A stretch of 64,000 nt of DNA from an uncultured Clostridium sp. (GCA_900552555.1 URZW01000002.1:82002-146001); one strand, 5' to 3'. Numbered from the stretch's first letter, positions 2,591 to 53,183 are shown. A program made the numbers and translations. Notes: generated by a model not told the origin, from the letters alone.

Positions 2591-3226
2591 ATGATATATT
2601 TCTCCTATAATGATTTCATGGATTGTGAGCAAAATGGAGAAAATAACGGAGTAAAAAGAATTGGAGAAGAAATTGTAAAATATGAAATAAAAAATAGTGA
2701 AAAAACAATAGATAAATCACCAATTATAGAAGTTATAAAAGACAAAAAAGAACTTAAAAATTTTTTAGACGAATTTTTTAATTTAGATAATTTAATAGGG
2801 AATTATGATATTCAATATTGTAACAAAATAAAGGCAAAAACAGATAAAAATACCAACAATGTTATAATTTCCAAGATTCAAAATAAAGAAATTTTTATAG
2901 TTATTAAAGAGATAGAAAAAATTGATATAAACATTGCTTACAAAATGTTTGAACATTCATCAAACCTGATAAAACAGTGGAATCAAAATAAGGGATTACA
3001 AAAGACAAGAAATCCAATTGTAATACCTATAGTTATATATACAGGAAAGCAAAAATGGGAAAACTCAAAAAACAAAAAATACAACAAGATAAATTACATA
3101 GAATATTCAGATAACAAAATAAAATTTTCTTATAATATGCTAAAAATAAACGAATTGGATAACTTAAATTTAAAAAATAAAAAATCAAAAGTTCTAAAAA
3201 CAATTATGAAAATTAAAAATATCTAA
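2591..3226 (+). CDS. Rpn/YhgA-like (Transposase_31, PD-(D/E)XK) family protein, N-terminal nuclease-domain-like and probably truncated
   Basis: IAYKMFEHSS...PIVIPIVIYTGKQKW resembles the RpnA motifs mafRLmrY and PLVVPLLFYHGE. Strong RBS (GAAAGGAGG). Lys/Asn-rich. Confidence 0.4.
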   Translation: MIYFSYNDFMDCEQNGENNGVKRIGEEIVKYEIKNSEKTIDKSPIIEVIKDKKELKNFLDEFFNLDNLIGNYDIQYCNKIKAKTDKNTNNVIISKIQNKEIFIVIKEIEKIDINIAYKMFEHSSNLIKQWNQNKGLQKTRNPIVIPIVIYTGKQKWENSKNKKYNKINYIEYSDNKIKFSYNMLKINELDNLNLKNKKSKVLKTIMKIKNI

Positions 3227-17259: not shown

Positions 17260-17337
17260 CGTTTTTTACTCCCTTTTATTATACTTTTGTTACAGCTTAT
17301 TAGGTTAATACCTGAGCTGTAACATACATTTTTATTA

Positions 17338-25197: not shown

Positions 25198-25377
25198 TCC
25201 ATTATTATCATTATCTAATTAGGACATCTTTTTTATATTTAAAAAATCTCTTGATTTGAAATAAGAAATTATAGTATAATAAAAAGAAAGAAAATAATGT
25301 AAAAATAAAAAGTACTCATAAAAGAATAATAAGGCATCAAACCAAGTTTGCACATTAGGAAAGGAATGAAATTATAT

Positions 25378-25923
25378 ATGAAAAATAAAGGAATAACAAT
25401 GATTTCTTTAGTATTAACAGTAATAATACTATTAATACTAGCCGGAATATCAATAGGAGCAGGAAGTAATATAATAACAAAATCAAAACTAGAAAACATA
25501 AAAACAGATATGATGTTAATAAAAGTAAAAGGAAAAGAATATGTTGAAAATGCAAACTATAGTCTAGGAACAGGTTTTGATAAAATAACAGACGAAAATG
25601 AAAAAAATACAAGAATAGAAAATGCAAAATCAAAATTAAAAGGAACAGAAATTGAAGAAAATAATGGATTAGATTCGATAATTGGCATAAATTCAGATGA
25701 ATTTCAAGAAGAAAAACAAAATTTAACTTATTACTATAAACTATCAACAAAAGACCTAGAAGACATAGGAATTTCTAATGTTAAATCAGATGAAAAAAAT
25801 GGAGAATATATAATAAAATATGATATAAAAAATGTTGAAATAGAAATATATAATACACAAGGATTCAAAAATGAAAACAAAAATTACTATTCTTTAAATG
25901 AATTAGAAAATTTAGAAGTGTAG
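25378..25923 (+). CDS. Small pilin-like protein with a non-canonical prepilin-type N-terminus (MKNKG|ITMISLVLTVIILLILAGISI)
   Basis: N-terminal segment homologous to those of the 30676 and 38026 adhesin-like proteins. ATG at 25378, about 12 nt after AGGAAAGGA. Confidence 0.5.
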   Translation: MKNKGITMISLVLTVIILLILAGISIGAGSNIITKSKLENIKTDMMLIKVKGKEYVENANYSLGTGFDKITDENEKNTRIENAKSKLKGTEIEENNGLDSIIGINSDEFQEEKQNLTYYYKLSTKDLEDIGISNVKSDEKNGEYIIKYDIKNVEIEIYNTQGFKNENKNYYSLNELENLEV

Positions 25924-30182: not shown

Positions 30183-30269
30183 TGAAAAAATTACATCATT
30201 AAGATATTATAATAAGTTAATCATAATAATTAAGATATTATTACATAGGTATTATTATAAATTAATATA

Positions 30270-30310
30270 AAAGACTAGAACATATAATTATAAAAAGTTC
30301 TAGTCTTTTA
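30270..30310. terminator. Bidirectional terminator (AAAGACTAGAAC...GTTCTAGTCTTT)
   Basis: 12-bp perfect stem between convergent truA and the XRE gene. Confidence 0.7.
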
Positions 30311-30544
30311 ATCGTCATCCAACTCATCAAACAAAGGACTATCATAAAAATCTTTTAGTTTTATATCAAGGCCTCGGCATATTCTAAGTATAGTCAATGT
30401 TTTGGGATTTATAAATTTTTTATTAACAATTCCTTCAAGTGTTGATTGTGTAATTCCACATATTGTTGAAAGCTTATTTATTGTGATATCTCGTTCATTA
30501 CAAAGTTCTACTATTCGATAACTAACAGCTGAAATTAAAGTCAT
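30308..30544 (-). CDS. XRE-family HTH regulator, divergent from adhesin-like gene A
   Basis: HTH_3 motif INKLSTICGITQSTLEGIVNKK. RBS AAGGTGG. Confidence 0.7.
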   Translation of the reverse strand: MTLISAVSYRIVELCNERDITINKLSTICGITQSTLEGIVNKKFINPKTLTILRICRGLDIKLKDFYDSPLFDELDDD

Positions 30545-30675
30545 TTTTCCACCTTCTTATGAAAAAAGTATATCAAAAAAATAAATATAAGATTAACTGT
30601 CTACAGGTGACAATAAAAAAAGTTATATAGTAAAATATTTGATAATATTAGAATAAAAACGAAGGAGAAGGTTTG

Positions 30676-32318
30676 ATGAAAAAGAAAAATATGCTGAAAA
30701 AAAGAATGGGATTACACTAGTAACTTTAGTAATAACAATTATTATTTTATTGTTACTTGCTGGAATTACAATTGCAACACTAGGAGGAGAAAATGGGTTA
30801 TTTGTTAAAGTAAAACAATCGAAAGAAAAATATTCAATATCAGAAGCAAAAGAAAAATTAGAATTAGCAATATCAACTTTACAAATTGAACAAGAGGGAA
30901 AAGGCGAAAATTTAAAAAAGGAAGATTTGCCAAAAATAAATGATGATGAAATAGATGTTAGGGATACATCCAATTTTCCAATTAAAGTAATATGTAACAA
31001 TTATGAATTTAACATAGACTCTAATTTTGTTGTTTCATATGTTGGAATAGCAAACGAAACAATTATTACATATACAACAGAACCAGAAGGTTATACCAAT
31101 AAAAATGAAATAAAGATATTAGTAAAAATAAAAAATTCCAAGGGAATAAAAACCATAGAATATCCTAATGATAACGATAAATTACTGGCAAATGGTCAAA
31201 CAGAAATAGGATTGGATTATAAGGTTACAGCAAATGGAACATATACTTTTAAAATAGTAGATAATGATAATAAAGAGACTAAAAAAGATATAGTTATTGA
31301 TAAAATTGATACAGTTGAACCAAAAGAATTTACACCAAGTATAGAAAATACAACAATGGAAGGATTTACAATAGTTGCAAATGCAGAAGACGGAGATGCA
31401 ACAAGAGAAAGTAGCAAAAGTGGAATAGAAAAATATGAATTTTATATTAACAATGTAAAATATGAAAGTGACACAAATAAATATATGGCAACTGGACTAA
31501 ATAAAAATACTAATTATAATGTATATGTAATTGCATATGATAAAGCTGGTAACAGTAAAAAATCAGAAGTAATTACTGCAAAAACATCATCTACATTACC
31601 TCCACCTGTGGCTAATATTACATTTAATGAAAATAATGCAACCAAAAAAGCTGCCGATTATCCATTATTAACAATGAGTGGAATGAAAAATTGTATTTTG
31701 GAACCTAATAAAGGAGAAGAAGTGACATTAGAAATTACAAGTAAAAAAAGTGATAATATAATTTATTATTATAGCGAAGATGGAGGAAATACCTGGAATG
31801 AATATACTCAGCCAGTAAAAATTAGTTATAATGGAGATAATTTAATAAAAGTAAAAAGTATGTACATTAATAATAATATAGAGTCAGAAGCTCAAGAGGT
31901 AAAAAAATATATATCATATGAAATTAATACAGAATGTACAGCATCAAATTCGTTAAAAAAAATCGCATATGATAAAAATATAAATTCCTATATGTCGATA
32001 TTATCATATGACGATATATATTTTAGAGTCAGTACAGAATGTTGGGGAAAGTATATAAATATTGACTGTAGCACACCGACACACGGATTTTATGGTTGGA
32101 TTTCATTGGGAAACAAAAATGGATTCTGGGATAATCCATTGGCTGGATACCTTGTAACTTTTACAGGGATAAGTGCACAAACACATTGTATTAGAAGTTT
32201 AAAGATACCAGAAAATTCTTTTTGGGGAGTATGTGAGGCAGGAACGTCTGGACAAGAGTTCAGGACATATGAAGTTTGGTGTGGAGAAGAAAATTTAACA
32301 GGGCAAATAAATAAATAA
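30676..32318 (+). CDS. Pilin-like large surface adhesin-like protein, paralog A (FN3-like domain, Cys-containing C-terminal domain). Currently out of frame at an A7 tract (30697-30703)
   Basis: ATG at 30676 with RBS AAGGAG. Adding one A gives MKKKNMLKKKNGITLVTLVITIIILLLLAGITI..., matching paralog B. About 270 aa at roughly 90% identity to B. FN3-like YNVYVIAYDKAGNSKKS. Confidence 0.6.
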
Positions 32319-32431
32319 CAAAAAGTAACCAAATCCAATAAAAAGCATAAAATATAGTAAAAACGATTAAAAATCAAAATTTTTAAACTTTATAGTTAAC
32401 CAAAAAAAGTTAACTTGAAAGGAGAAAAAGA

Positions 32432-33005
32432 ATGAACGCTTTACTAATATTTTTTGCTTTACCAATAGCAGTAATAATAATATCAATAGCACTACAAAAA
32501 ATCTTCAAATGTCCATTTTTAGTAGCAGCAATAATATTTGCAATATTCCTAATAGTAACATTTGTAATAGGAAATCTAAATTACTTAGTAGCAACAATAG
32601 CATATACAATACTAGCATTTATAACAGCAGTACTAACAAACATAATTTGCAGAATATTTAGAGAATTAGATAGGAGAGAAGGAGAAAGAGAATCAAGTTG
32701 TTGTAACAGAAGAAACAGAAATTCAAACAATAACAATAATGGAACACAACTATTATCAATAACTCGGAGACTGCTCAAACAACAATAATGGAAATTTATT
32801 AACAATAAGTAGTAATGGATGTAATGGAGTTGAAAATGACTTATTAACAATCAACACAAATTGTCCAAATAATAGCAATAATAACAGTTGTTCATGCAGT
32901 TGCAATACATCAAATGATTCAATAGCAGTTAGAGCAAATGTATTTCCAAATAATAATACAAATGGAAGAACGGGAAGTTTTTGTGGATGCTTTAGAAGAA
33001 GGTAG
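32432..33005 (+). CDS. Small 3-TM membrane protein with an Asn/Cys-rich repetitive C-terminal tail. The tail continues out of frame (+1) after the annotated stop at 32788
   Basis: ORF 32432-32788. Frame +1 from 32763-33005 encodes ...NNNNGNLLTISSNGCNG...CSCSC...CGC. 30-nt near-repeats encode NNG-x-LL-[ST]-I. Confidence 0.35.
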
Positions 33006-33273
33006 AAAATGTCGAATTTTGCGATGAAAAAATATTGCAAAGTTCGACATTTTGTAGTATTATATAAATACTTTAATTTTATTCAAATATTTATTCAAGG
33101 TCAAAAATCGATGACCAAAATTCCAAAAAATACAAAAAAGTAAAGAAGATGATTACAATAATAAAAGGAAATTAACTTTTAAATTAATATTGACAAAATC
33201 AAAAATGAATATTATAATAAAGGAGATGAAGTAATATAGAAATATTTACATATGGAGAGTATATAAAATATAG

Positions 33274-33693
33274 ATGTTTATTCAAAAAATGGTCAAAAAA
33301 AAAAGAAAGGATACAAATGAAATTATAGAAATATTAAACAAAGTAATTAAAAGTACTAAAGATGAAAATAAAGAAATGCTTAAAAGAATTATATTTATAG
33401 CTTTAGAAGAAAAGCTAGGATATAAGGAAACAATGGAAGTAATTGATAAAATAGATGGAGGTGAGGAAGAAATGTTAGCAATAGTAGATACAATACGCAG
33501 AGAAAATCAAATGTATATAAATATGGGAAGAAAAGAAGCAAAGAAAGAAGCAAAAAAAGAAATTAAAAACAAGCTATATAAAATAGCACAAAAGTTATTG
33601 GAAAGAAATACATCAAAAGAGGATGTAGCAGAAATAACAGGACTAAAAGAAAAAGAAATAGAAAAAGTATTAAAAATGGAGAAAATATTATAA
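33274..33693 (+). CDS. Rpn/YhgA-like (Transposase_31) C-terminal fragment
   Basis: KEDVAEITGLKEKEIEKVLK plus a Lys/Glu-rich helix matches the conserved C-terminal tail of Rpn-family proteins. The nuclease domain is absent. Confidence 0.4.
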   Translation: MFIQKMVKKKRKDTNEIIEILNKVIKSTKDENKEMLKRIIFIALEEKLGYKETMEVIDKIDGGEEEMLAIVDTIRRENQMYINMGRKEAKKEAKKEIKNKLYKIAQKLLERNTSKEDVAEITGLKEKEIEKVLKMEKIL

Positions 33694-33809
33694 AAAAACA
33701 CGAACAATGTAATTAGCCAAAAAGCCAAAGAACTACAAATAAAATTGCTTGATAATTTTACATTTTTATGTTAAACTAATAAATGCAAAACATTTTAGGA
33801 GGAATAAAA

Positions 33810-34706
33810 ATGTTAGAAATTATAGAAGATACACTAATAGATGCCATAAAACTATTACCATTTCTATTTATAACATATCTAATTATGGAATATATAGAAC
33901 ACAAAATGGGACATAAAACAAAAAAGGCAATAAAAAAATCAGGAAAATGGGGACCAATAATAGGAAGCATACTTGGAGCATTTCCACAATGTGGATTTTC
34001 AGTATCAGCAACAAATCTATATGCAGGACGAGTTATAACACTAGGGACACTAATAGCTGTATATCTATCTACATCAGATGAAATGCTACCAATATTTATA
34101 TCAGAAGCGGTTTCTCCAATAATAATATTAAAAATATTAGGAATAAAACTTATTATAGGAATGATAGCAGGAACAATAATAGACTTATTAGTACATATAA
34201 TAAAAAACAAAATAATAAAAAATAAAAAAATTGAAATAACAGTTGAAGAAGAAAATGATGAAGACGAAATAGGACATATGTGCGAAGAAGACCACTGTCA
34301 CTGTAATGAAAGTGGAATACTTAAATCAGCAATACATCATACATTAAGCATATTGTTATTTATAATAATAATAACATTTATTATAAATACAGTGGTACAC
34401 TTTGTAGGGGAAGAAACCATTGCAAGTTGGATATTAAATAAACCAGTAATTGGACCAATAATTGCATCACTAATAGGATTAATTCCAAACTGTGCGGCAT
34501 CAGTAATAATAACAAATATGTATTTAGAAAATGTTATTTCACTGGGAAGTATGATTTCAGGTTTATTAACAGGTGCAGGAGTTGGACTTGCAGTCTTATT
34601 AAAAACAAATAATAAAATTAAAGAAAATATAGGAATAATCACTTTATTATATGCAATAGGAGTTATATCAGGTATAATAATCGATTTAATAGGAATTGCA
34701 TTATAA
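33810..34706 (+). CDS. Two-repeat integral membrane permease (DUF318/ArsP-like) with a His/Cys-rich central loop (GHMCEEDHCHCNESG)
   Basis: Internal duplication with P-x-C motifs (FPQCGFSV, IPNCAASV) and an acidic/His/Cys loop. ATG at 33810 after AGGAGGAAT. Confidence 0.45.
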   Translation: MLEIIEDTLIDAIKLLPFLFITYLIMEYIEHKMGHKTKKAIKKSGKWGPIIGSILGAFPQCGFSVSATNLYAGRVITLGTLIAVYLSTSDEMLPIFISEAVSPIIILKILGIKLIIGMIAGTIIDLLVHIIKNKIIKNKKIEITVEEENDEDEIGHMCEEDHCHCNESGILKSAIHHTLSILLFIIIITFIINTVVHFVGEETIASWILNKPVIGPIIASLIGLIPNCAASVIITNMYLENVISLGSMISGLLTGAGVGLAVLLKTNNKIKENIGIITLLYAIGVISGIIIDLIGIAL

Positions 34707-34757
34707 TAAATCATAATAAAAAACTGCCAAAAGTAAATAACTAATGACAGTTTTTAT

Positions 34758-37064
34758 TTATTTATTCTTTTTATTTTTTAAATTAACTATAATAGCATCC
34801 TCATTATCAAATAAATAATTAGAATCTGTTGTATCAGTTTGAACAGGATTTATTTCATTTCTTTCATCAATAAAATCCAACTTTTTAGGATTGAATTTTT
34901 TTCTATTCAAACCATTTTCATTATCTTCAGTTTCAGTAGTAACACCATCGGAATATTTACCAAAATCATATATTTTTGTTTTTCTTGGTTCTTTATATTT
35001 AGATGCTAAATAATTAAATTTACCTGGACCAGCCATTGGTTTACCATTAGAACCTCTAATTTTATAAGCACAATCCTTTTGACCAAGAGTTTGTAATTTA
35101 CCAGGTTTAAAATATGGAGTAAATTTCCATTCAACACTACCATGTTTTGAATCATATTTCATCTTATCAAAATCAATAGAATTACCCATAGACCATTCTC
35201 TCTTTTGTCCAAATTCGCTACTCCACCATTCAAGTTCGCTAATTACTCCGCCACCTGTAAAGATTTTACTAGCGCAGTTTGATAATATAGTTTGTTTAGC
35301 GCCAGCTACATTTAATTGCTCAAGGTTTTGAGCAGATATAACAGTACCAACTTTATATTTCCTATACATTGTAAATATAGGTTCTGTTGCTTTACAAATA
35401 AAGTCAGGAAATTCATCAATGTATAAGAAGTTTGGAACTCTAGATTTTTCGCTTCCAGGTCTTCTTAAAACAGCATTTTGCATTGAAATTAAGAAGAATA
35501 GTCCAAATGCTTTATGGTTAGTAGCACCTAAATCACCACGTCTAGTACATATAAAAGTAATATCTCCATTTGCTAAAGACTCGTCAAAATTAATATTGTT
35601 ATGTCTATTACATAAGATATTTTTTACACCAGGAACACGTAGTAATCTATCAAGAATGTCTGCAACAACAGAAATGAATGTTTCTGTATTATGTTTGTTA
35701 GGAGCGTCTTTGTAAAAGTTATTTTTAAAATAAACAAGTTGAGTGTTGTATTTTTCTTTTAGCTCTTCGTCATGTTCTAGAATTTTACACATTTTTTCTA
35801 TTAAATCGAAGTTTGTAAACATTTTTAGCATATCTTCTAAATTAGGTAACATACCTTCGTTCATTTTAGGGTACATTTCTTTCAATAATATAGAAATGTT
35901 TTCGATGGCTTGAATTACTTGCAATTCCTTGAAAAGTTCATATTTTGAAATATCAACCATAGCTTTCATTACTGAAGAAATAGTAATTGCTATTTTATTT
36001 GTATCATCATAAACAAATGGATTTAAGCCAATTGAATTTTTATCAGAAGGATCAATGACATTATAAGTTAAACCAAAATTTTTACATACATCCATCATAT
36101 GGTCTGAAATTTCTCTATCAGGAGACATAACAGTTACACCACAATTTTTATAAGTGATTTCAGAAGTAGAATCTAAAATCATTTTTTTCATATATCCTTT
36201 ATAAACATCTTCATTTCCAGAAGTTGGTGTCAACATATTTAAATTAAAATTAGAATTTAAATACTCATTATCATATGGTTTTGTTAATGTAGCAATTCCT
36301 GTTTTTAAAGCAGTAAATCCCATTTCTTTTGCAACTTCTCTAAAGAAAAATTTTTTTTCTAAATCTCTAGCTATTAAAGGTTCATAAACTAAAGATGTTT
36401 TTCCAGAACCAGATGCACCACATACAAACATTGATTGATATCTTGAAGCTTCTGGAATTGTTATTTGTTGAGAAGTTTCACTATTTTGACATAGGTATAT
36501 ATCACATGTATATGGTCCATGACCTTGTTTTTTATCAGATAAATCAATTCCTGCATAATCCCAAATAGATTGTTTCATATCTTTACTATCATTTACACCA
36601 AAATACAAGAAATTAAATATCTTTGGAATAACAAGTACCGGTACTAAAATAGTTAAAGATGTTAAAGCTGGACGAACTAGATCAGAAAAATCTGTAACTA
36701 AATCAACATATCCAGGATTAAATACAAGTAGTAACCATGCCCCCATATTAAGCCATTGAGTAAACATAGAAATTGCAATTATACTCAAACCAATTACATA
36801 TATATAAAATAAAGTAACTTTTTTACTTTTGGTTGATGCAAATTCAGATGGAATTGAAAAAGCAAATGCTAACATAGGACATGCAAGTGCTATTGTATAT
36901 TGAAGTGGTCCCCAATATGAATAAGAAACACCTGTAAATAACATTAATAACATTTCAGTGATTCTGTCAACTGCTATGTATACAGTTATAAGTGTTAATA
37001 TATATGTGGCAAAAGTGTTTCTACTAACTCCTAGTTTTTTTAAAAAATTGTCTATTATTTTCAT
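34758..37064 (-). CDS. Membrane-embedded FtsK/HerA-superfamily P-loop ATPase resembling type IV secretion VirD4/TraG coupling proteins (or VirB4). About 5 N-terminal TM helices
   Basis: Walker A VCGASGSGKTS, Walker B FLYIDEFPDF, then the pattern R..KVGTVISAQNLEQL...ILSNCASKIF. Strong RBS AAAAGGGG. Confidence 0.5.
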   Translation of the reverse strand: MKIIDNFLKKLGVSRNTFATYILTLITVYIAVDRITEMLLMLFTGVSYSYWGPLQYTIALACPMLAFAFSIPSEFASTKSKKVTLFYIYVIGLSIIAISMFTQWLNMGAWLLLVFNPGYVDLVTDFSDLVRPALTSLTILVPVLVIPKIFNFLYFGVNDSKDMKQSIWDYAGIDLSDKKQGHGPYTCDIYLCQNSETSQQITIPEASRYQSMFVCGASGSGKTSLVYEPLIARDLEKKFFFREVAKEMGFTALKTGIATLTKPYDNEYLNSNFNLNMLTPTSGNEDVYKGYMKKMILDSTSEITYKNCGVTVMSPDREISDHMMDVCKNFGLTYNVIDPSDKNSIGLNPFVYDDTNKIAITISSVMKAMVDISKYELFKELQVIQAIENISILLKEMYPKMNEGMLPNLEDMLKMFTNFDLIEKMCKILEHDEELKEKYNTQLVYFKNNFYKDAPNKHNTETFISVVADILDRLLRVPGVKNILCNRHNNINFDESLANGDITFICTRRGDLGATNHKAFGLFFLISMQNAVLRRPGSEKSRVPNFLYIDEFPDFICKATEPIFTMYRKYKVGTVISAQNLEQLNVAGAKQTILSNCASKIFTGGGVISELEWWSSEFGQKREWSMGNSIDFDKMKYDSKHGSVEWKFTPYFKPGKLQTLGQKDCAYKIRGSNGKPMAGPGKFNYLASKYKEPRKTKIYDFGKYSDGVTTETEDNENGLNRKKFNPKKLDFIDERNEINPVQTDTTDSNYLFDNEDAIIVNLKNKKNK

Positions 37065-37258
37065 TATTTATTTGCCCCTTTTTATTAATTATATTTTATT
37101 TGAAATTTTATAATACTACATATCTATTATCCTATAAAATGAGGAAAAAAACAAGTATTTTTGGAAAAAAAGTACATAAATAGTTACTATAAAAGAATAA
37201 AAATCTAATAAACAACATATAATATTTAAAATTACATAAGAATAGGAGAGATGTGTTT

Positions 37259-37537
37259 ATGGAAGAATTCAAAAAAGAACAATTAATAAAAGAAAAAAGT
37301 GAACTAGATAAAGAATTAGAATTAATTAGAAATATAATAAAAACAAGAGAAGAATTAAAAAATGACAATAAAAATTTTGAATTTGCAGAAATGGAATTAG
37401 TAGATTATTATATATATCATATAAAAGCAAATCAAGCAAAATTAGATTATTTAATAAAATTAGCAAAAGTAAATGGAATTACAATAGATAGAATAAACAA
37501 AATAAAATATGAAAATTATGATGAAGAAATAGGGTAA
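37259..37537 (+). CDS. Hypothetical small coiled-coil protein
   Basis: RBS GGAGAG. No recognisable family. Confidence 0.35.
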   Translation: MEEFKKEQLIKEKSELDKELELIRNIIKTREELKNDNKNFEFAEMELVDYYIYHIKANQAKLDYLIKLAKVNGITIDRINKIKYENYDEEIG

Positions 37538-37652
37538 GAGGTAACAATATTTATTCCAGATAATAACAATAAAGATAATTATAAAAATAAAATATAAATG
37601 AATATTTGTCCATATTTATTCATACAAATGTATAAATAAAGTTTGAAGAGGG

Positions 37653-37916
37653 ATGAGTATGGATACAAATATAATTACATATTTAGCATGCATATGTTTT
37701 TTATTTATTTTTGGTAGAATTTTTATTGTGCCAATAACAAAGATTTTAAAACTTGTTATTAATTCTATTTTAGGTGGAGTAGCTATATTTTTAATAAATC
37801 TTGTTGGGGGATTGTGGGGATTCCATATAGGACTTAATATTTTTACAAGTATTTTAGTTGGCTTATTAGGATTGCCTGGAGCTGTGTGCTTGGTTATTCT
37901 AAAATTATTAATATAA
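37653..37916 (+). CDS. bofA: BofA-family small membrane protein (pro-sigma-K processing inhibitor-like)
   Basis: NSILGGVAIFLINLVG...LNIFTSILVGLLGLPGAVCLVILKLL matches the BofA pattern, including the conserved GLPG motif. Confidence 0.55.
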   Translation: MSMDTNIITYLACICFLFIFGRIFIVPITKILKLVINSILGGVAIFLINLVGGLWGFHIGLNIFTSILVGLLGLPGAVCLVILKLLI

Positions 37917-38025
37917 TAGATATATTTAATAAAACAGCAAATTATTATAACATCATAATAGTTTGCTGTTTTATCTTATGGAATCAAAATTCAAAAATTT
38001 TATACCATAACTATAGAGGGTTAGC

Positions 38026-39387
38026 TTAAAATTCTTGACAAGACAAATCTTCATCTGTACATTTAACTTCATATACATAAAAAGGAACAGATAAAGATGT
38101 CCCATCTAATAATGAAATCATTTTTGTATTCTGTGGTATTTTTACACTTTTTGCTGTTTTAGTACCGAATGTTTTATTTTCTGATAGCCTGTATAAGTAA
38201 TCAAATTTTATTAAATTATTTATATTTATTGATGAAAACATAGCCATACATCCATAACTAGAACAATCTGCAGTCCATGTATATAAGGTTATATATTTTC
38301 CCCAACACGCAGGATCTATCATTAATTTATTTAAATAGGAATTATCAGTATCACAATCAGCATAAGTTGTATAATTATTATCATATGCTTTTTCTGCTAA
38401 TGCATCTTCAGTCAATCCATCATCAGGTATCATAACTCCATTTAATGTTAAAGTTGGATAACCACCTTCTGTAGTTGTTACAGTTATTGTTGATGACTGT
38501 TTAGAATTTCCAGCTCTATCATATGCTTTAACATATACAGAGTAACTTGTCTTTTTAGTTAATCCTGTTACCTTAAAAATTTTTTGGCTTGACTCATATT
38601 TAGTATTGTTTACAAAAATTTCATACTTTTCAATTCCACTTTTTATACTAGTATCTGTTTCATCACCATCTTCAACATTTGCAACTACTGTAAATGCCGT
38701 TGATTTTATATTTTCTATACTAGGTGTGAAATCTTTAGGCGCAACGGTATCAATTTTTTCAATAACTATATCCTTTGTAGTTTCAATATTATCATTATCT
38801 ACTATCTTAAAAGTATATGTTCCATTTGCTGTGACTTTATAATCAAATCCAACTTCTGTTTGACCATTTGCCAATAATTTATCATTATCATTTGGGTATT
38901 CAATAGTTTTTATTCCTTTAGAATTTTTAATTTTTATTAATATTTTAACCTCGTTTTTATTAGTATAACCTTCTGGATCTGTGGTATATGTAACAATAGT
39001 TTCATTAGCTATTCCAACATATGAAATAACAAAATTAGAATCTATATTAAATTCATAATTATTGCATATTACCTTAACTGGAAAATTTGAAGTATCCCTA
39101 ACATCTATTTCATCATTATTTATTTTAGGTAAATCTTCTTTTTTCAAGTTCTCACCATTTCCTTCTTGTTCAATTTGCAAAGTTGATATAGCTAATTCCA
39201 ATTTTTCTTTAGCTTCTGATATTGAATATTTTTCTTTTGATTTTTTCACTCTAGCAAATAATCCATTTTCTCCCATTAATGTTGAAATTGTTATCCCAGA
39301 AAGAATTAACAAGATAATAATTGTAACAACCAACGAGACCAAAGTAATACCTTTCAAAGACTTTAAATTCGTTTTTAAATTTTTCAT
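38026..39387 (-). CDS. Pilin-like large surface adhesin-like protein, paralog B (intact). Non-canonical prepilin-like N-terminus, FN3-like domain, Cys-containing C-terminal domain
   Basis: MKNLKTNLKSLKG|ITLVSLVVTIIILLILSGITI. FN3-like YSVYVKAYDRAGNSKQS. RBS GGAGGA. Confidence 0.6.
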   Translation of the reverse strand: MKNLKTNLKSLKGITLVSLVVTIIILLILSGITISTLMGENGLFARVKKSKEKYSISEAKEKLELAISTLQIEQEGNGENLKKEDLPKINNDEIDVRDTSNFPVKVICNNYEFNIDSNFVISYVGIANETIVTYTTDPEGYTNKNEVKILIKIKNSKGIKTIEYPNDNDKLLANGQTEVGFDYKVTANGTYTFKIVDNDNIETTKDIVIEKIDTVAPKDFTPSIENIKSTAFTVVANVEDGDETDTSIKSGIEKYEIFVNNTKYESSQKIFKVTGLTKKTSYSVYVKAYDRAGNSKQSSTITVTTTEGGYPTLTLNGVMIPDDGLTEDALAEKAYDNNYTTYADCDTDNSYLNKLMIDPACWGKYITLYTWTADCSSYGCMAMFSSININNLIKFDYLYRLSENKTFGTKTAKSVKIPQNTKMISLLDGTSLSVPFYVYEVKCTDEDLSCQEF

Positions 39388-39568
39388 TTCAAAAATCCTC
39401 CTTCTTCTTTAGTTTAAAGCTTTTTTATTGTTTTTTTAAAATTAAAAGACTATTATATCAATATACTTTTGAAAAATTTTTTCATCAAAAACAGCGAGAG
39501 AGGCTCGCTCTTTTTGAAAGATTTTATCATACAATAAAAAAGTAGTCAATGAAGTTAGGAGAAAAACA

Positions 39569-39808
39569 TTGAAAAAGTATGAAAATAAAAATAATGTTAT
39601 AGGAAATCTAATAAAAGAATATAGAGAAAATTCGAAATTATCTAAAACGGAAGTTAGTAGACAACTACAATTACATGCTGTTTATATTGATCGCACGGAA
39701 TTAAATAGAATGGAAGAAGGGAGAATGATTGTAAAAGATTTTGAACTTATTGCTTTATGCAAAGTACTAAAAATTCCATTTGAAAAATTATCATACCTCA
39801 TAGAATAA
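39569..39808 (+). CDS. XRE-family HTH regulator, divergent from adhesin-like gene B (TTG start)
   Basis: HTH_3-like LSKTEVSRQLQLHAVYIDRTE. RBS AGGAGA, then 6 nt to TTG. Confidence 0.6.
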   Translation: MKKYENKNNVIGNLIKEYRENSKLSKTEVSRQLQLHAVYIDRTELNRMEEGRMIVKDFELIALCKVLKIPFEKLSYLIE

Positions 39809-39843
39809 ATGAAATTTTATAGGGCTTATATTAATTAAAAAAA

Positions 39844-39870
39844 GGGATTGAAGACCAGGCCCCTAATCCC
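39844..39870. repeat. Intergenic repeat family C (GGGATTGAAGRCCWGGCCCCYAATCCC)
   Basis: Palindromic GGGATT...AATCCC. Matches the reverse complement of 63651-63679. Confidence 0.65.
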
Positions 39871-39915
39871 GAAAAAAAACAGGAAATAAGACATACGTCC
39901 TCAATCCTGTTTTTT

Positions 39916-41757
39916 TTATTCAACTGTAACTGATTTTGCTAAGTTTCTAGGCTTATCAACATCCAAACCTTTTTCCTTAGAAATATGATAAGCAAGTAAT
40001 TGTAATGGAACAATTGATAAAATAGGGGAAACAAAACAATTTGTTTCAGGGATATCAATTACAACATCAAACATACTCTTATCAATATCTTGGTTAGAAA
40101 TAACCAAAGTTTTAGCACCACGAGTAATAACTTCTTGAATATTACTTACAGTCTTTTTAACCAAATCTTTATCAGTCATAATACTAATAACAGTAACACC
40201 ATTTTCAATTAAAGCAATAGGACCATGTTTCAATTCACCAGCTGCATAACTTTCAGAATGAATATAAGAAATCTCCTTTAATTTCAAAGAACCTTCTCTT
40301 GCAACTGTCTCATCAATACCTCTACCCAAGAAAAATATATCTTTTTCTTGATAAATCTGCTTAGCAAATTCTTCAATTTTTTCATCACATTTTAAAACTT
40401 CTTCTATTTTTTTAGGTAATTCTAAAATATTTTTCTTAATATCAACTAATAAACTTTCATCAGCAGTTTCAAGGATTTCTGCAAAATAAATTGCTAAGAT
40501 AGTCATTAAAACAACTTGAGAAGTATATGCTTTTGTAGAAGCAACAGCAATTTCTGGACCAGCATGTGTATAAACTGAATAATCTGCTTCTCTTGTTATA
40601 GAACTTCCAATAACATTAGTAATTGCAATAGTTTTAGCACCTTTTTCTTTTGATAATTTTAATGCTGCTATTGTATCAGCTGTTTCACCAGACTGAGACA
40701 AGAAAATACATAAAGTTTTATCATCTACAATTGGGTCTCTATATCTAAATTCTGAAGCAATATCAACTTCTGTAGGAATTCTACAAAGTTTTTCAATTGA
40801 ATTTTTTCCTGTAAGTCCAGCGTGCATTGCTGTACCACAAGCTACAATATAAATTTTATTTAAGCTTGATAAATATTCTTTTGTGAATTTTAATTCATCA
40901 AATTCACATTTTGAATTTACATTTACTTTAGCACCTATTGTTTCTCTAATAGCAGTTGGTTGTTCAAAAATTTCTTTTAACATGAAATCGTCATAACCTT
41001 CTTTTTCTGCAGCTGTAGCATTCCATTCAATAGATTCAGTTTTCTTTTCAATTTCGTTTAAATCTTTATCATAAAATTTCGCAGAATCTTTTGTTAAAAC
41101 AACAAATTCTAAATCATTTAAAAGATAAAAATCTTTTGTGTAAGAAAGTATAGCTGGGATGTCTGAAGATAAATATTTTTCATCTTCACAAGTTCCTATA
41201 ACTAAGGGGCTATCTTTTCTCACAACTATCATATTATCTGGGTAAAAACTTGAAATAACTTCAAGTGCAAAACTTCCTTTTAAATCTAAACAAGCATTTC
41301 TTACTGCTCTTAAAAATTTCAAATTATCATTTTTTGTATCATTTGTAAAATAATAATGTATTAAGTTAGGGATAACTTCTGTATCTGTTTGAGAATAGAA
41401 TGTATATCCTTTTTCTGTTAAAAATTTTCTTAATTCATTGTAATTTTCAATAATTCCATTATGAACTACACTAAATGTTTTTGAATTATCTTGATGAGGG
41501 TGAGAGTTCTCCTTTGATGGCTTTCCGTGTGTTGCCCATCTTGTATGAGCAATACCAATAGTTCCTTCTAATTTATCAATTCCGTCTAAGTTTGATAAAT
41601 TTTTAACCCTTCCTTTATCTTTCATTATTGATAATCCATTTTTTTCGATTGTTGAAATACCAGCAGAGTCATATCCTCTGTATTCCAATCTTGTTAGCCC
41701 TGCTAAAAGTATAGGGCATGCTTTTTTTGTTCCAATGTAACCTACAATTCCACACAT
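39916..41757 (-). CDS. glmS: Glutamine--fructose-6-phosphate aminotransferase
   Basis: MCGIVGYIG N-terminal nucleophile plus two SIS domains. Confidence 0.95.
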   Translation of the reverse strand: MCGIVGYIGTKKACPILLAGLTRLEYRGYDSAGISTIEKNGLSIMKDKGRVKNLSNLDGIDKLEGTIGIAHTRWATHGKPSKENSHPHQDNSKTFSVVHNGIIENYNELRKFLTEKGYTFYSQTDTEVIPNLIHYYFTNDTKNDNLKFLRAVRNACLDLKGSFALEVISSFYPDNMIVVRKDSPLVIGTCEDEKYLSSDIPAILSYTKDFYLLNDLEFVVLTKDSAKFYDKDLNEIEKKTESIEWNATAAEKEGYDDFMLKEIFEQPTAIRETIGAKVNVNSKCEFDELKFTKEYLSSLNKIYIVACGTAMHAGLTGKNSIEKLCRIPTEVDIASEFRYRDPIVDDKTLCIFLSQSGETADTIAALKLSKEKGAKTIAITNVIGSSITREADYSVYTHAGPEIAVASTKAYTSQVVLMTILAIYFAEILETADESLLVDIKKNILELPKKIEEVLKCDEKIEEFAKQIYQEKDIFFLGRGIDETVAREGSLKLKEISYIHSESYAAGELKHGPIALIENGVTVISIMTDKDLVKKTVSNIQEVITRGAKTLVISNQDIDKSMFDVVIDIPETNCFVSPILSIVPLQLLAYHISKEKGLDVDKPRNLAKSVTVE

Positions 41758-41854: not shown

Positions 41855-42012
41855 AGTATGCAAACTTAAAATATTAACTTCTGTTCTAATATTACTATTA
41901 GTTTTTAAATTAATACTTATGACTTTAAGTAAAAGCCACTAGAGTATCCGCCGAATTTTTCGATAACTCTAGACCTCGTCAACCACATTAAATAGTGGTC
42001 CTGGCGCTTGAA
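41855..42012 (-). ncRNA. glmS ribozyme: glmS ribozyme (GlcN6P-responsive self-cleaving riboswitch) in the glmS 5' UTR
   Basis: Minus strand reads A|AGCGCCAGGACC...GACGAGG-UCUAGAG-UUAUCGAAAAAUUCGGCGGAU-ACUCUAG-UGGC. Conserved core matches the consensus, and P2 shows compensatory base changes. Confidence 0.85.
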
Positions 42013-42117
42013 AAATAACTCCTTTCTTGATATTTTTATGCATCTTTCAATTTTACTTTATTATATTACATCAAAATATATTTTGGTGCAAGTGTTTTTA
42101 ATTATTTTTAAAAAACA

Positions 42118-49935: not shown

Positions 49936-50160
49936 ATGAAAACTATTAAAGGAATTTTTACAATATCCTTTTAATAGTTTTTTTAAATTTTTATTGATTA
50001 TAAATATTATATTAATGATTTTATAAAAGTAATAAAATGTTTTATAAACAAGAAAATATAAAATAATATAAAAGAAAATACACTTTTTATAAAACAAAAT
50101 TTGTATTTGTCAAATTAGATGATAAACTATAGAAAACTTAAGAAAAAGCGTGGTGAGAAA

Positions 50161-50778
50161 ATGATAGATAAAATCACAGAATTTCTAACCAACAAAATTA
50201 GAAAAGAGATGCCAGATGTAGATGATGAAAGAGCAGAAATTATAAACTATGGTCTTCAGATTTTAATAGGTGAAGTACCAAAAATATTTATAATGTTAGC
50301 TATTGCATATTTATTAGGAGTATTTAAACTTAGTTTAATAACATTCTTAACATTAATACCATACAGAGGGTTTTCTGGAGGATTTCATCTAAAGACTCAT
50401 ATAGGATGTATTATATCAACATGTACATTTTATTGTGGAACAGCATTGCTTGCTAAATATATAGTTTTAGGAAGTATTACAAAATATGTATCAATTATAT
50501 TATTAGCAATTTTTGGAATTATTATGATAAAACTATATGCACCAGCAGATACTGAAGATGTTCCAATAATAAGCCCAAAAATAAGAAAACAAAAACAAAT
50601 ATTATCATATATATCATTTATAATTGGTTTATTAATTGCATCTTTGATTAATAACAATATAATATCAAATATAATAATATTTGGATATTTAATGCAAACA
50701 TGTATGATAACAAGGTTAGCATATAAACTTACAAATAATAAATATGGCTATGAGGTTTATGAAAATGCTACAAATTAA
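50161..50778 (+). CDS. agrB: AgrB-family AgrD-processing membrane peptidase
   Basis: IINYGLQILIGE...RGFSGGFHLKTHIGCIISTC carries AgrB motifs including the catalytic His and Cys. Alternative start at 50119. Confidence 0.8.
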   Translation: MIDKITEFLTNKIRKEMPDVDDERAEIINYGLQILIGEVPKIFIMLAIAYLLGVFKLSLITFLTLIPYRGFSGGFHLKTHIGCIISTCTFYCGTALLAKYIVLGSITKYVSIILLAIFGIIMIKLYAPADTEDVPIISPKIRKQKQILSYISFIIGLLIASLINNNIISNIIIFGYLMQTCMITRLAYKLTNNKYGYEVYENATN

Positions 50779-50856
50779 TTAGTTAATATTAAAAATACAA
50801 AGCCGGCTGTATTTTTATATTATATAAATTTTTTTAAAACAAAGGAGGAAAACTTT

Positions 50857-50976
50857 ATGTTAAAATTATTAGCTAAAGTTGCAGAAAAATATGCAAAATC
50901 TACTAACACAGCTTGTGGGTTGTGGGTTATAATGCATCAACCTAAAATGCCAGCTAGTTTAGTAAAAAAAGATTAA
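50857..50976 (+). CDS. agrD: AgrD autoinducing-peptide precursor (39 aa)
   Basis: Perfect RBS AAAGGAGGAAAACTTT-ATG. Amphipathic leader MLKLLAKVAEKYAKS, core TACGLWVIM, conserved HQP-K tail as in clostridial AgrD. Confidence 0.65.
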   Translation: MLKLLAKVAEKYAKSTNTACGLWVIMHQPKMPASLVKKD

Positions 50977-51136
50977 TTTTAAATTGTTTTTAAACTTAAA
51001 TATGAGTAGTTCGACAATGCTTATATTTAGGGTACAATATACTTAATGTTATTTATAGACAATCCACTAAAAAAGGAACAGGTTACTGTTCTTTTTTTAG
51101 TGAGTAAATAAAAATGATAGAATAAATCTATCATTT

Positions 51137-52486
51137 TTAATAATATATTTCTAATTGTTGAGAAAAATATTTTCCATTTTTAGCTGTATGTAAATTAACA
51201 TTATTATTTTTCTTTAATATTTGTCTTATTTCCCATAAACCAAGACCAGTATGATTTTCTTTTCCAGTAATACCTTTATTAAATATTTGTTCTACATTTA
51301 CATCCTTATCTTTATAGGTATTTTCTATTAATATTATATTTCGATTATTTTTTGATTCATTCCTAAATACTATATTAATTTCTTTTTCATCACATTCTTC
51401 AGATGCTTCTATAGCATTATCTAATAAAATACCTAAAATTCTTGCAAATTCATAAACCTTCATATGTAAATTAGTTAAATCTAATAAAAATGTTAAGTTT
51501 ACTTTTATACCTTTTTCTTCAGCTTCACTATATTTAGATGTAAGCAAATTATATATTCCAGGGTTATTAATAATATCTGGATTTAAAAGATATAAATTAT
51601 TAACTTTGGAACAATCACTTTCAAGTTGAGAATAATATTTTTTTAAACCATCCATATCATTTGTTTTTATATATCCACCTATAGTTGTAACTATATTATC
51701 AAAATCATGTTTGAATCCTCTAACACTATCATGTAAAATATGTAATGTTTTATTATATTCTTCAGCACTTTCTAATTTTTGTGTAGTTGTTACTAATTTC
51801 ATTATTTTGGCTAAACTATAAAAACTTAAACTAAAATAAATCAATAAACAAATAAAATTAAAGAAAGTAAATTGTACGGGCAAAATATTTATATAATTTG
51901 AAGTTAAGATTCCTTGAATTATTATATATATTATGGCAAATAAAAAATTTAATGTAATAATAAATTTATTTCTTTTATCAATATTATCTAGAATTGTAAC
52001 ACTAATATTTTTATATTTTATAGCCATATTTAATAATAGAATTATCAAATATACAAGAAGTACAAAAGGAATTCTATAAATAGGAATATACAAAGCTTGC
52101 TCTAAAGTAATATTTAAAATTGATAAATAAGGATTGAATAACAAATTTACTACCAAATTAAATATTATACTTGGAAATATAGATGCTATAACTGATTTAA
52201 TTACCCCTAACTTAATTACAAAGTATAAAATCAAAAAAGCCGAAGAATAATTTAAAATAGTATTATATGGAGATGGCAGTATATACATTGAAATTATACC
52301 TATCACAGAAACTACAATTATATAAATAAATTTTTGTTTTTTATTACAAATTATATTAAAAATATTACATATTAAAGAAAAAGAAAGAGGAGTCTCTATA
52401 AATATAATTAAAAGAGATATACATATTTTTACAAGAAATTCATTCGGCGTACTCACTGCCAACCACAAATTATTCAGAATGTTCAT
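51137..52486 (-). CDS. agrC: AgrC-like (HPK10) membrane sensor histidine kinase
   Basis: 6-7 N-terminal TM helices. H-box RGFKHDFDNIV. C-terminal GHKL ATPase (GLGLWEIRQIL). Confidence 0.75.
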   Translation of the reverse strand: MNILNNLWLAVSTPNEFLVKICISLLIIFIETPLSFSLICNIFNIICNKKQKFIYIIVVSVIGIISMYILPSPYNTILNYSSAFLILYFVIKLGVIKSVIASIFPSIIFNLVVNLLFNPYLSILNITLEQALYIPIYRIPFVLLVYLIILLLNMAIKYKNISVTILDNIDKRNKFIITLNFLFAIIYIIIQGILTSNYINILPVQFTFFNFICLLIYFSLSFYSLAKIMKLVTTTQKLESAEEYNKTLHILHDSVRGFKHDFDNIVTTIGGYIKTNDMDGLKKYYSQLESDCSKVNNLYLLNPDIINNPGIYNLLTSKYSEAEEKGIKVNLTFLLDLTNLHMKVYEFARILGILLDNAIEASEECDEKEINIVFRNESKNNRNIILIENTYKDKDVNVEQIFNKGITGKENHTGLGLWEIRQILKKNNNVNLHTAKNGKYFSQQLEIYY

Positions 52487-53183
52487 TTTTCTTAACCTCC
52501 TCGATCAAACTTTTCTTGAATTTTGGACCAATATCACAAGTTGACCCATTATCAAAATACACAATATTACCTATAGAATCCAAATTAGCGATATTATTAA
52601 TATTAACAATAAAAGACTTATGAGCCCTAACAAAATTAGAAGGCAAAGAACACATAATTTTATTAAAAGAACTATAAGTTTCATAATCACGAGTTTTAGT
52701 ATGAAAAACCAACTTCATACCATCACGTTTAATATACAAAATTTCATTTTCATCAATAATAGTCTTTTTATTATCAACTTTAATATATCTTTTAGGGCGA
52801 CCATTAACATCCTCAAACAAACGAACAATAGTCTCCTCCAATCTATCAGAAGTTACCGGTTTAGCCAAGTAATCAAAAGTTTTAAATTTATATGCCATCA
52901 TAGCATATTCTAAATGAGCAGTAGTGAATATAAAATAAGTATCCTTATTACTTTCTCTAACTTTAGATGCGATTTCTAGACCAGTTTTATTTGATTTTAA
53001 ATTAATATCTAAAATTAAAACATCAGTTTTATTTTCATCAATATAATCTAATAATTCATCAACATTATTTGTACTGATACCAATCTTTGCATCATAATCA
53101 TGTTTTATAAATATAGTTTCAAGAATTTTTGAAAATTTATCTAAAATATTTATATTATCATCACAAATTGCAAAATTTAACAT
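52470..53183 (-). CDS. agrA: AgrA-like LytTR-family response regulator
   Basis: Receiver domain (ICDDN...LILDINL) plus LytTR DNA-binding domain. 17-nt overlap with the agrC start (translational coupling). Confidence 0.8.
   Translation of the reverse strand: MLNFAICDDNINILDKFSKILETIFIKHDYDAKIGISTNNVDELLDYIDENKTDVLILDINLKSNKTGLEIASKVRESNKDTYFIFTTAHLEYAMMAYKFKTFDYLAKPVTSDRLEETIVRLFEDVNGRPKRYIKVDNKKTIIDENEILYIKRDGMKLVFHTKTRDYETYSSFNKIMCSLPSNFVRAHKSFIVNINNIANLDSIGNIVYFDNGSTCDIGPKFKKSLIEEVKKNEHSE

Follow-up and report, generated by a model that had tools for sequence, protein, structure and literature searches.

Putative pilin-like adhesin genes with divergent XRE regulators in two strain-variable islets flanking a core gene block of an uncultured Clostridium

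Known modular pilins and the locus between truA and glmS

The closest described concept for the genes considered here is the modular type IV pilin, as represented by Streptococcus sanguinis PilB, which carries a vWA module, and PilC, which carries a lectin module (PMC8179133, PMC9934059). We analyzed a stretch of 64,000 nucleotides (hereafter the window, with positions counted from its first letter) from an uncultured Clostridium sp. (GCA_900552555.1 URZW01000002.1:82002-146001), in which two large genes, A and B, face each other from the two ends of a gene block located between truA and glmS (Table 1). This locus is probably composed of two separately acquired islets of ~2 kb, here called cassettes A and B, each carrying an XRE regulator gene and a gene for a modular type IV pilin adhesin, which bracket a block of core genes. 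Like PilB and PilC, the A and B proteins combine an N-terminal pilin module (a class III signal peptide and an alpha-1 helix) with a binding module grafted onto the C-terminus; a tip location and an adhesin role are likewise proposed for them, and their predicted module is of the lectin type, as in PilC. They differ from the streptococcal proteins, however, in lacking both the glutamate at mature position 5 (Glu5) and a match to IPR012902/N_methyl, and in having a two-domain Ig-fn3 stalk between the pilin module and the tip. In addition, A and B lie outside a pilus operon, as single-gene islets with their own divergent XRE gene, they are known from sequence alone, and their family is large, with many alternative tips.

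A constant N-terminal part joined to alternative C-terminal ends is also found in PilV, the minor type IV pilin of the IncI plasmids R64, R721 and TP114, in which the constant part (~345 aa in TP114) is followed by alternative adhesin tips that change the binding specificity; this is achieved by a shufflon, i.e., clustered short sfx sites at which the Rci tyrosine recombinase swaps the 3' ends within one gene (PMC9045228). The A/B locus resembles this system in its constant-N/variable-C pilins and in the inverted DNA segments at a pilin locus, but no sfx-like sites, recombinase or isomers were found there, and the tips of the A/B family are carried by complete separate genes at separate loci. 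The tip minor pseudopilins GspK/PulK and PilK resemble A and B in lacking Glu5, in being larger than the major subunit by virtue of an extra domain, and in being expected to cap the filament (PMC10191384, PMC8179133). In the A/B clade, in contrast, even the small (presumably major) pilins of the operon lack Glu5, no sequence similarity to these pseudopilins is seen past the hydrophobic segment, and the extra modules are appended to the pilin sheet instead of being inserted into it.

The tips of A and B are 9-15% identical to solved CBM32 or F5/8 type C (discoidin) modules from glycosidases of gut Clostridia (C. perfringens NanJ, GH84C/GH89), from which they differ by a conserved Cys pair that is specific to the A/B family. 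Finally, a Tad-type pilus cluster with pilin-like proteins has been described in the uncultured gut order TANB77 (PMC11680825). Both sets are pilin-like proteins of uncultured low-GC Clostridia of the human gut, recognizable by a short leader in the cytoplasm, a single transmembrane helix and a domain on the outside. The TANB77 system, however, is of the Tad/Flp type (TadZ/CpaE, TadA/CpaF, TadB/C), with pilins of 143-236 aa in one cluster, whereas the machinery linked to the A/B family is of the PilB/PilT/PilC/PilD type and the family members are modular adhesins of 450-650 aa at scattered loci.

Strain-variable islets and the gene block between them

The pilin cassettes are inserted variable parts, and the segment between them is an ancestral chromosomal backbone running from truA to glmS, which was found in three states. 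In the first, seen in a sister species (L105-L108; ATPase 92% identical to that of the window), the order glmS-bofA-yaaL(DUF2508)-ATPase-arsP-DUF2651-truA was present with neither a pilin nor an XRE gene at either end of the block, and the glmS terminators directly abutted bofA; the sister-species ATPase occurred in 88 blocks of the collection, on contigs of up to 1.74 Mb. When the window was compared with L105 by blastn, the backbone was 86-89% identical and the match broke exactly at 30184-32417 and 37917-39830. The second state, with cassette B only, was that of L001-L005, and in L001 the flanks matched the window at 99% and 97% around a clean 2,138-bp gap at 30183-32320. The third, with both cassettes, was that of the window, L006-L011 and L097-L102, so that cassette A was present in these and absent from L001, L002/L003 and L105-L108. 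The order and the orientation of the backbone were constant across all three states, and the GC content was uniform (25-28%) in cassettes and backbone alike. Neither target-site duplications nor terminal repeats were seen at the cassette borders, and a 40-nt likeness between the empty site of L001 and the 3' end of gene A was too AT-rich to interpret.

An earlier note on this DNA had taken the intervening genes for the cargo of a decayed mobile element. Its list of these genes was right in the main; the Rpn fragment, however, amounts to a weak sub-threshold match (TIGR01784, E 0.0011), and the membrane protein rich in Cys and Asn that it described as frameshifted is the DUF2651 gene, which is full length (118 aa), has an intact frame and occupies the same position in genomes without cassettes. 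The variable stretch of the backbone at 33046-33762 had no counterpart in L002 or L105. The genes in question would, under such a reading, be the remnant of an integrative and conjugative element, with the ATPase, the Rpn fragment and the permease as cargo or transfer genes bounded by the pilin modules. The TraG-D_C domain is indeed typical of conjugative coupling proteins, a weak Rpn-like ORF (open reading frame) is present at 33274-33693, and the cassettes themselves come and go between strains. Yet in every relative that was examined the supposed cargo is found between truA and glmS, also in the B-only strains and in the cassette-free sister species, where its order is kept at 86-89% identity. 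More than 3,428 homologues of the ATPase were counted, many of them ~92% identical and on gut contigs of up to 1.74 Mb, and it hence behaves as a core chromosomal gene; it is absent from the pilin-family loci L092, L093 and L095 and does not travel with the pilin cassettes. Pfam and NCBIfam scans revealed no relaxase, integrase, VirB4 or other type IV secretion system genes, so that the TraG-D_C ATPase stands alone; there is no GC anomaly, and YaaL and BofA are housekeeping or sporulation genes. The fixed chromosomal position of the block therefore refutes a mobile-element origin, which we regard as scarcely credible, and a TraG-like ATPase located between two repeats is by itself no evidence of a mobile element.

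Genes A and B share a long inverted repeat. A repeat search of the window returned the arms 30704-31465 and 38594-39355 (762 nt, 83% identity), which continue at 31475-31585 and 38474-38584 (111 nt, 71%), and blastn merged both pairs into one 886-nt match of 81.9% (30704-31585 versus 38474-39355). The repeat described in the earlier note is thus real, but at ~82% its identity is slightly lower than the 85-90% then estimated by eye. It starts exactly at the Gly codon that closes the leader peptide, and the ribosome-binding site, the leader codons and the promoters are outside the alignment. Whole duplicated modules, as the same note had pictured them, were not found: no similarity could be detected between the two XRE proteins (BLASTP E 0.21), neither the promoters nor the leaders can be aligned, and the shared part is confined to the 5' ~880 nt of the pilin genes. 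At the protein level A and B are 72% identical over the first ~336 aa and diverge after that, and they then converge again, as had been noticed, on a Cys-containing C-terminal domain (29% identity over 125 aa, E 2e-08; 29-30% in a second alignment). The inverted repeat is limited to the stalk-coding 5' parts (~880 nt) of two paralogous genes, and it exists only because these have retained a common stalk and, by chance, point towards one another.

A recent duplication of gene B giving gene A was considered and rejected. The XRE genes and the leaders are unrelated and the stalk of A, 79% identical to that of B at the amino acid level and 83% to that of the homologue P0006, is no nearer to B than to other members of the family; therefore A is not a recent copy of B. 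A and B are separate members of one multigene family.

The layout of the repeat had led to the suggestion that the locus is prone to inversion or recombination. Recombination between the ~880-nt inverted arms would, as in a shufflon, flip a 6.9-kb segment and swap the tips; the arms are real and long, and they belong to the coding sequences, immediately 5' of the stretches that vary, so that an exchange would yield in-frame chimeras. However, the eight contigs that span both genes (L006-L009, L011, L097-L099), as well as the contigs with cassette B only, were all collinear with the window and gave single blastn matches. These assembled contigs come from independent gut metagenomes and match the window at 95.5-97% (L006-L011) or 99.7-100% (L097-L104), and ~16 further places were listed with the same neighbours. 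No isomer in the inverted orientation was present among the assembled contigs examined, a set that does not include raw long reads, and cassette A is simply missing in close relatives. The arms themselves, 17-18% diverged, carry no sign of exchange: the A-B identity is flat (81.7-82.0% whatever the strain) and conversion tracts are absent, no identical run exceeds 26 nt, and 65 synonymous versus 39 non-synonymous codon differences were counted over 253 gap-free codons. Domain scans of the genes in the 27-43 kb region detected no tyrosine or serine recombinase, nor was one present in the Pfam marks of the syntenic loci, and the same region has no sfx-like short repeats, the repeats found being limited to the two coding arms, which are long and diverged, and to short AT-rich ones due to chance.

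Domain mosaicism in the family would also speak for an exchange between A and B. The B-site allele P0004 (L114, 487-2163, 558 aa) has a B-like stalk (81-84%) and a B-like tip (71-80%), and carries a ~105-aa middle domain otherwise seen in A-type genes, which is 59% identical to that of A. P0004 thus differs from A by 41% in the common middle domain and is therefore not a recent recombinant of A and B; L114/P0004 shows that a single locus has gained or lost a domain. We consider an A-B inversion switch very improbable, and a long inverted repeat between paralogues is by itself no evidence of such a switch.

A pilin-type N-terminus, a common stalk and variable tips

The two islets bracketing the core block would each contribute one modular pilin, and the case for this starts at the N-terminus. 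Class III signal peptides have a hydrophilic leader of variable length that ends in Gly or Ala (PMC10191384, PMC8179133). The leader of gene B, MKNLKTNLKSLKG, and that of the in-frame A alleles, MKKKNMLKKNG, are both followed by ITLV, and in gene B the stretch right after the predicted cleavage site is ITLVSLVVTIIILLILSGITISTLM (25 aa). Such a hydrophilic leader ending in Gly or Ala, followed by 20-25 mainly hydrophobic residues (alpha-1N), is what defines this class of signal peptide, and 118 of the 120 best homologues have a basic leader of 4-35 aa ending in Gly or Ala, then the motif [IV]T[LMI][IV]x[LV][VI][IV]T and ~20 more hydrophobic residues.

A complete type IV pilus operon, confirmed by Pfam, was found in a related metagenome-assembled genome (MAG; L063, 7140-17440). 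It encodes a PilN-domain protein, an A24_N_bact peptidase, a T2SSE+MshEN ATPase, a second T2SSE ATPase, which by its position is likely PilT, a T2SSF platform protein, and three tandem small pilins (159-168 aa) with the same N-terminus as the A/B family, KGITLIALVITIIVLLILAGVSIAMLTGENGIL, all of them without Glu5. This suggests a Glu5-less pilus throughout the clade. Gene B matches an L063 pilin with a BLASTP E of 1e-15 over 60 residues, and a profile of the A/B N-terminus aligned with the small-pilin profile over 96 columns (hhalign probability 99.6%, E 1.6e-23); the L063 operon pilin itself scores 20.4 bits on N_methyl, just below the cut-off of 21.2. In other MAGs, a Peptidase_A24 gene lies 1-3 genes from large pilin-like genes with BspA LRR modules. 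A profile search of the PDB gave weak matches (E 0.013-1.4), with type IV pilins in register as five of the top eight (GITLVAL versus GFTLIEL). In the AlphaFold2 model of the first 315 residues (pLDDT 85), helices at 16-38 and 43-76 and four strands at 94-126 are followed by an Ig-like and an fn3 domain, the latter scoring 4.5e-05 and 24.0 bits in gene B, just below the 25-bit Pfam cut-off.

Several points weigh against A and B being pilins that are displayed on a filament. Glu5 is missing from A, B and all homologues: mature position 5 is occupied by Ser in B and by Thr or Ala in A, and throughout the homologues, the L063 operon pilins among them, by Ala, Ser, Thr or Val. Glu5 is, for its part, "often, but not always" present in pilins, and the tip complex is capped by a subunit without it (PMC10191384). 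Pfam N_methyl (PF07963) and TIGR02532 (IPR012902) gave no match to A or B at E <= 0.1, and the only such match is a weak one, to TIGR01710 GspG (0.0023, 18 bits versus a cut-off of 88.85). A Foldseek search of the 315-aa N-terminal model against the PDB was dominated by the Ig/fn3 domains; it returned only tandem Ig/fn3 matches and no pilin, and is thus uninformative on the pilin fold. The pilin fold of residues 1-126 is thus argued from secondary structure and profile homology. The 64-kb window, to which inspection of this genome was confined, contains no pilus machinery or prepilin peptidase. The number of large proteins with this N-terminus per MAG exceeds the usual count of minor pilins, and control of each adhesin by the neighbouring XRE protein, through an operator, is something we infer from position alone.

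Whether A and B are processed and displayed on pili is hence the chief uncertainty, and the chief alternative is that they are surface proteins with class III signal peptides that act outside pili, the N-terminus being a processed or uncleaved membrane anchor and each protein an individual binding protein. A precedent exists in the archaeal "bindosome", in which substrate-binding proteins carry class III signal peptides. The absence of Glu5, which helps subunit docking in filaments (PMC10191384), would fit such an anchor, and so would the absence of pilus genes near A or B and the abundance of the motif, with at least 599 stretches among the GTDB species representatives and several per MAG, mostly in proteins of 300-1,500 aa encoded among housekeeping genes and far from pilus operons. 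On the other hand, the small pilins of a true pilus operon have exactly the same Glu5-less N-terminus, therefore the loss of Glu5 is no bar to filament assembly in this clade, and the long Ig-fn3 stalk that follows the pilin module suits display at a tip. Modular pilins encoded apart from the pilus operon are also known. We regard the surface anchor as unlikely, though as an alternative to be taken seriously.

The extent of the family was estimated in several ways. Of the at least 599 GTDB stretches, 80 loci were kept, with a best match of 42% identity, and all 80 belong to gut or animal-associated MAGs labelled "uncultured Clostridia / Clostridium sp.". A Walker-A regular expression for PilB-type ATPases gave no match beside these 80 loci, but it was too strict, since it missed the operon of L063, which is one of the 80. 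A profile search of 1.84 billion representatives returned 329 clusters at E <= 1e-30, and ~100 of the best 150 clusters are proteins of 300-1,500 aa that match the whole stalk at their N-terminus. The N-terminal motif gave three matches in the window, versus none expected. In the literature, no paper was found in which these N-terminal peptide strings occur. The third of the window matches is a pilin-like gene (25366-25923) that stands alone among housekeeping genes and also encodes 185 aa in L006.

Behind the stalk the proteins vary. The 120 best homologues have a common ~300-aa N-terminal module and tips made of the Cys domain, RCC1 repeats (the majority), LamG or F5/8 type C domains; the description of A and B as pilin-like surface proteins with a conserved stalk and a variable tip, already given in the earlier note, is clearly borne out at this family level, where a middle domain of ~105 aa is also present in some members and absent from others. 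The tips of A and B are predicted to be CBM32/discoidin-like jelly rolls, and gave no match to Pfam F5_F8_type_C (PF00754). The middle domain of gene A has weak matches below the cut-offs to an OmpL47-type domain (2.3e-05) and to CHB_HEX_C (0.016). Orthologues of gene B are P0001 (98%) and P0002 (83%). The stalk, the optional middle domain and the tip have thus been combined differently among family members over evolutionary time.

Gene A of the window is frameshifted. The ATG at 30676, which has a good ribosome-binding site, opens a frame that ends at the stop at 30718, and in the long frame no ATG precedes the TTG at 30750, so that the intact ORF 30676-32318 of the earlier note does not exist as such. 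The out-of-frame sequence CTG-A7-GAAT is present in the window, L097/L101 (ERR1190956), L102 (ERR11569892) and L099 (SAMN08335057), and since this A7 frameshift recurs in independent samples it is not a sequencing error. The ERR1190956 contig matches the window at 100% over 14 kb. L098, 99.7% identical to the window over 14 kb, has the in-frame CTG-A8-GAAC and a product of 547 aa, L006-L011 have CTA-A5-G, which is in frame and one codon shorter, and P0011 (548 aa), an in-frame allele, shares 99% identity. Read against the closest in-frame allele, the defect of gene A is a difference of one base in a homopolymer (A7 versus A8). The frameshift could be a reversible phase variation or else a null allele fixed in a dispensable gene, dispensability being suggested because gene A is wholly missing from L001-L005. 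In L099, the 50 bases upstream of the gene A leader (14380-14430, at the contig end and abutting window position 30686) are unlike the window and are found nowhere else in it, which points either to an artefact of the contig end or to an alternative junction.

In order from the N-terminus, the proteins would thus consist of a basic leader that closes with Gly, ~25 hydrophobic residues in which Ala, Ser or Thr takes the place of Glu5, a long alpha-1 helix and a small beta-sheet, then the Ig-like and fn3 stalk, an extra beta-sandwich in gene A only, and a C-terminal galactose-binding-like (CBM32/discoidin-type) tip. We propose that an A24 prepilin peptidase would cleave the prepilin, which, owing to the missing Glu5 and to its bulky module, would be presented at a type IV pilus tip, where the tip module may bind a glycan or another ligand; the adjacent XRE protein would bind the common intergenic region and set the expression of its own adhesin. 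Diversity would arise by gain and loss of whole islets, by domain exchange within the family over evolutionary time and by frameshifts in the poly-A (Lys-codon) tract of the leader, and not by A-B inversion.

A bolder extension of this proposal, tentative and in our judgement rather doubtful, is that the lineage runs a type IV pilus in which every pilin, down to the major ones, lacks Glu5 and which draws on a large library of stand-alone tip-adhesin genes, with one Ig-fn3 stalk and CBM32-like, RCC1, LamG, discoidin or LRR tips, each forming an autonomous islet of 2 kb under an XRE switch of its own; slippage of the leader poly-A tract would toggle some of them. If so, the Glu5-less library would be a multi-locus, regulator-gated counterpart of a shufflon, by which one pilus could present different adhesins to host or dietary glycans. 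If the main proposal is right, abundant uncultured human-gut Clostridia would have a strain-variable repertoire of pilus-displayed adhesins, whose glycan-binding-like tips would be candidate determinants of niche and host-glycan specificity. The family is a natural test case for the assembly of a filament with Glu5 missing from all subunits, and for the selection of bulky modular pilins for the tip. It also matters for annotation: there is at present no Pfam or NCBIfam pilin call for these proteins, which would pass as generic fn3 or RCC1 surface proteins.

Regulators, feature coordinates and other genes of the window

A small divergent XRE-type HTH gene lies beside each adhesin gene, as had been recognized by eye (Pfam HTH_26 for XRE_A, HTH_3/HTH_31 for XRE_B). 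XRE_A is 42% identical to the regulator partnered with an RCC1-tipped pilin in L093, and XRE_B occupies the same position in L001-L005, L114 and L012. A divergent XRE gene of 73-83 aa, 70-180 bp upstream, is present at each of the six distinct chromosomal loci that hold close family members (A, B, L012, L092, L093, L095), and such a gene was also found at four more distant pilin-like loci. The paired regulators belong to at least three unrelated subtypes, so that what is conserved is the arrangement and not any one regulator. Single-sequence phmmer was too insensitive for XRE partners in distant loci (5 of ~70 found), and for this reason the pairing is claimed for the close family only.

The regulators and the modular adhesins could also be seen as prophage remnants, i.e., as Cro/CI-type repressors accompanying receptor-binding or tail-fibre-like genes. 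The small XRE/Cro-like proteins do match PHROG 8 and 3 (E ~1e-7), and phage receptor-binding proteins, too, follow the principle of a constant N-terminus joined to an exchangeable C-terminus. A and B themselves, however, have no meaningful PHROG matches, 2.9 million viral contigs gave just five weak matches, confined to the N-terminus and none with the 300-aa module, and no phage structural, integrase or lysis genes lie beside any of the loci. With an N-terminus that is a transmembrane or pilin segment, a phage origin is an explanation to which we attach practically no weight.

The intergenic region of cassette A contains promoter-like sites at 30607-30636 (+) and 30613-30584 (-) and an AT-rich palindrome at 30625-30648, all of which are consensus matches only. 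That of cassette B is 97% conserved even in a lineage in which the flanking coding DNA is 81-87% identical, and contains a GC-rich palindrome or terminator-like hairpin at 39485-39517, TCAAAAACAGCGAG-N5-CTCGCTCTTTTTGA. Its arms are 14 nt long and GC-rich, with T and A runs alongside, within an otherwise AT-rich divergent promoter region, and the sole variant seen (L002) retains G-U pairing on the gene-B sense strand only; this hints at an RNA hairpin or attenuator, and not just at a protein operator. An Rfam scan gave the glmS ribozyme as its sole match, with no known RNA element inside the cassettes.

Table 1. Features of the truA-glmS locus and of a further pilin-like gene (window coordinates)
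Feature	Position	Strand	Evidence or remarks
Third small pilin-like gene, 185 aa	25366..25923	+	Same Glu5-less N-terminal motif (KGITMISLVLTVIILLILAG); no Pfam match; outside the locus described here
Cassette A, strain-variable islet of ~2.1 kb (XRE_A and gene A)	30183..32322		Directly after the truA stop codon
XRE_A, 78-aa single-domain Cro/C1-type HTH regulator, divergent from gene A	30308..30544	-	Pfam HTH_26 3.8e-09
Divergent intergenic region of cassette A	30545..30675		Presumed promoters and operator
Gene A, putative modular type IV pilin-like adhesin, frameshifted in the leader-coding part	30676..32318	+	Pfam fn3 4.5e-06
Poly-A tract A7	30697..30703	+	Frameshift site in the Lys-rich leader of gene A
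Left repeat arm	30704..31585	+	Codes for the hydrophobic N-terminus, long helix, small sheet and Ig-like + fn3 stalk of gene A
Extra middle domain of gene A, ~105-aa beta-sandwich (predicted)	31590..31895	+	Alignment gap; not in gene B
C-terminal Cys-containing tip of gene A, A-type	31896..32315	+	ECWGKY...YEVWC
DUF2651 membrane protein, backbone	32432..32788	+	Pfam DUF2651 1.5e-08; full length as in relatives
139-aa ORF with weak likeness to the C-terminal part of Rpn proteins	33274..33693	+	TIGR01784, below cut-off; in a small variable backbone stretch
ArsP-like permease (NCBIfam "arsenic efflux protein" family), backbone	33783..34706	+	NF037962 5.7e-97; Pfam ArsP_2 8.3e-25
Membrane P-loop ATPase, 768 aa, TraG-D_C domain, backbone	34758..37064	-	Pfam TraG-D_C 5.7e-08
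YaaL-like DUF2508 protein, backbone	37253..37537	+	Pfam DUF2508 2.3e-06
BofA, inhibitor of pro-sigma-K processing, backbone	37653..37916	+	Pfam BofA 2.6e-19; TIGR02862 2.5e-15
Cassette B, islet of ~1.9 kb (gene B and XRE_B)	37917..39830		Between the bofA stop codon and the glmS terminators
Gene B, putative modular type IV pilin-like adhesin	38026..39387	-	Intact, 453 aa
C-terminal tip of gene B	38029..38448	-	Predicted galactose-binding-like (CBM32/discoidin-type) beta-sandwich
Right repeat arm	38474..39355	-	Stalk-coding part of gene B
Divergent regulatory region of cassette B, 181 bp	39388..39568		GC-rich palindrome, promoter-like sites
XRE_B, 79-aa HTH_3/HTH_31 regulator, divergent from gene B	39569..39808	+	Pfam HTH_3 1.5e-07

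Outside the locus, Rpn/YhgA-like genes (Transposase_31 / PDDEXK_2) were observed in the window at 2591-3226 (+) and, in L093, at 8555-9352 and 17303-18226, where they adjoin a family cassette. The glmS ribozyme lies upstream of glmS at 41862-42019 (-) and is full length (Rfam RF00234, 88.3 bits). ComEC is apparently split (13171-15132, +) into an ORF at 13171-14298, with DUF4131 and the N-terminal part of the Competence domain, and an ORF at 14434-15132, with Lactamase_B, and may be a disrupted competence channel gene. Finally, an agr-like quorum-sensing set was called by eye at 50119-53183, with an AgrB-like membrane protein (50119-50778), a histidine kinase (51137-52486, -) and a LytTR-type regulator (52470-53183, -), and this call is supported by AgrB and HATPase_c_5 Pfam marks at the matching position in L002.

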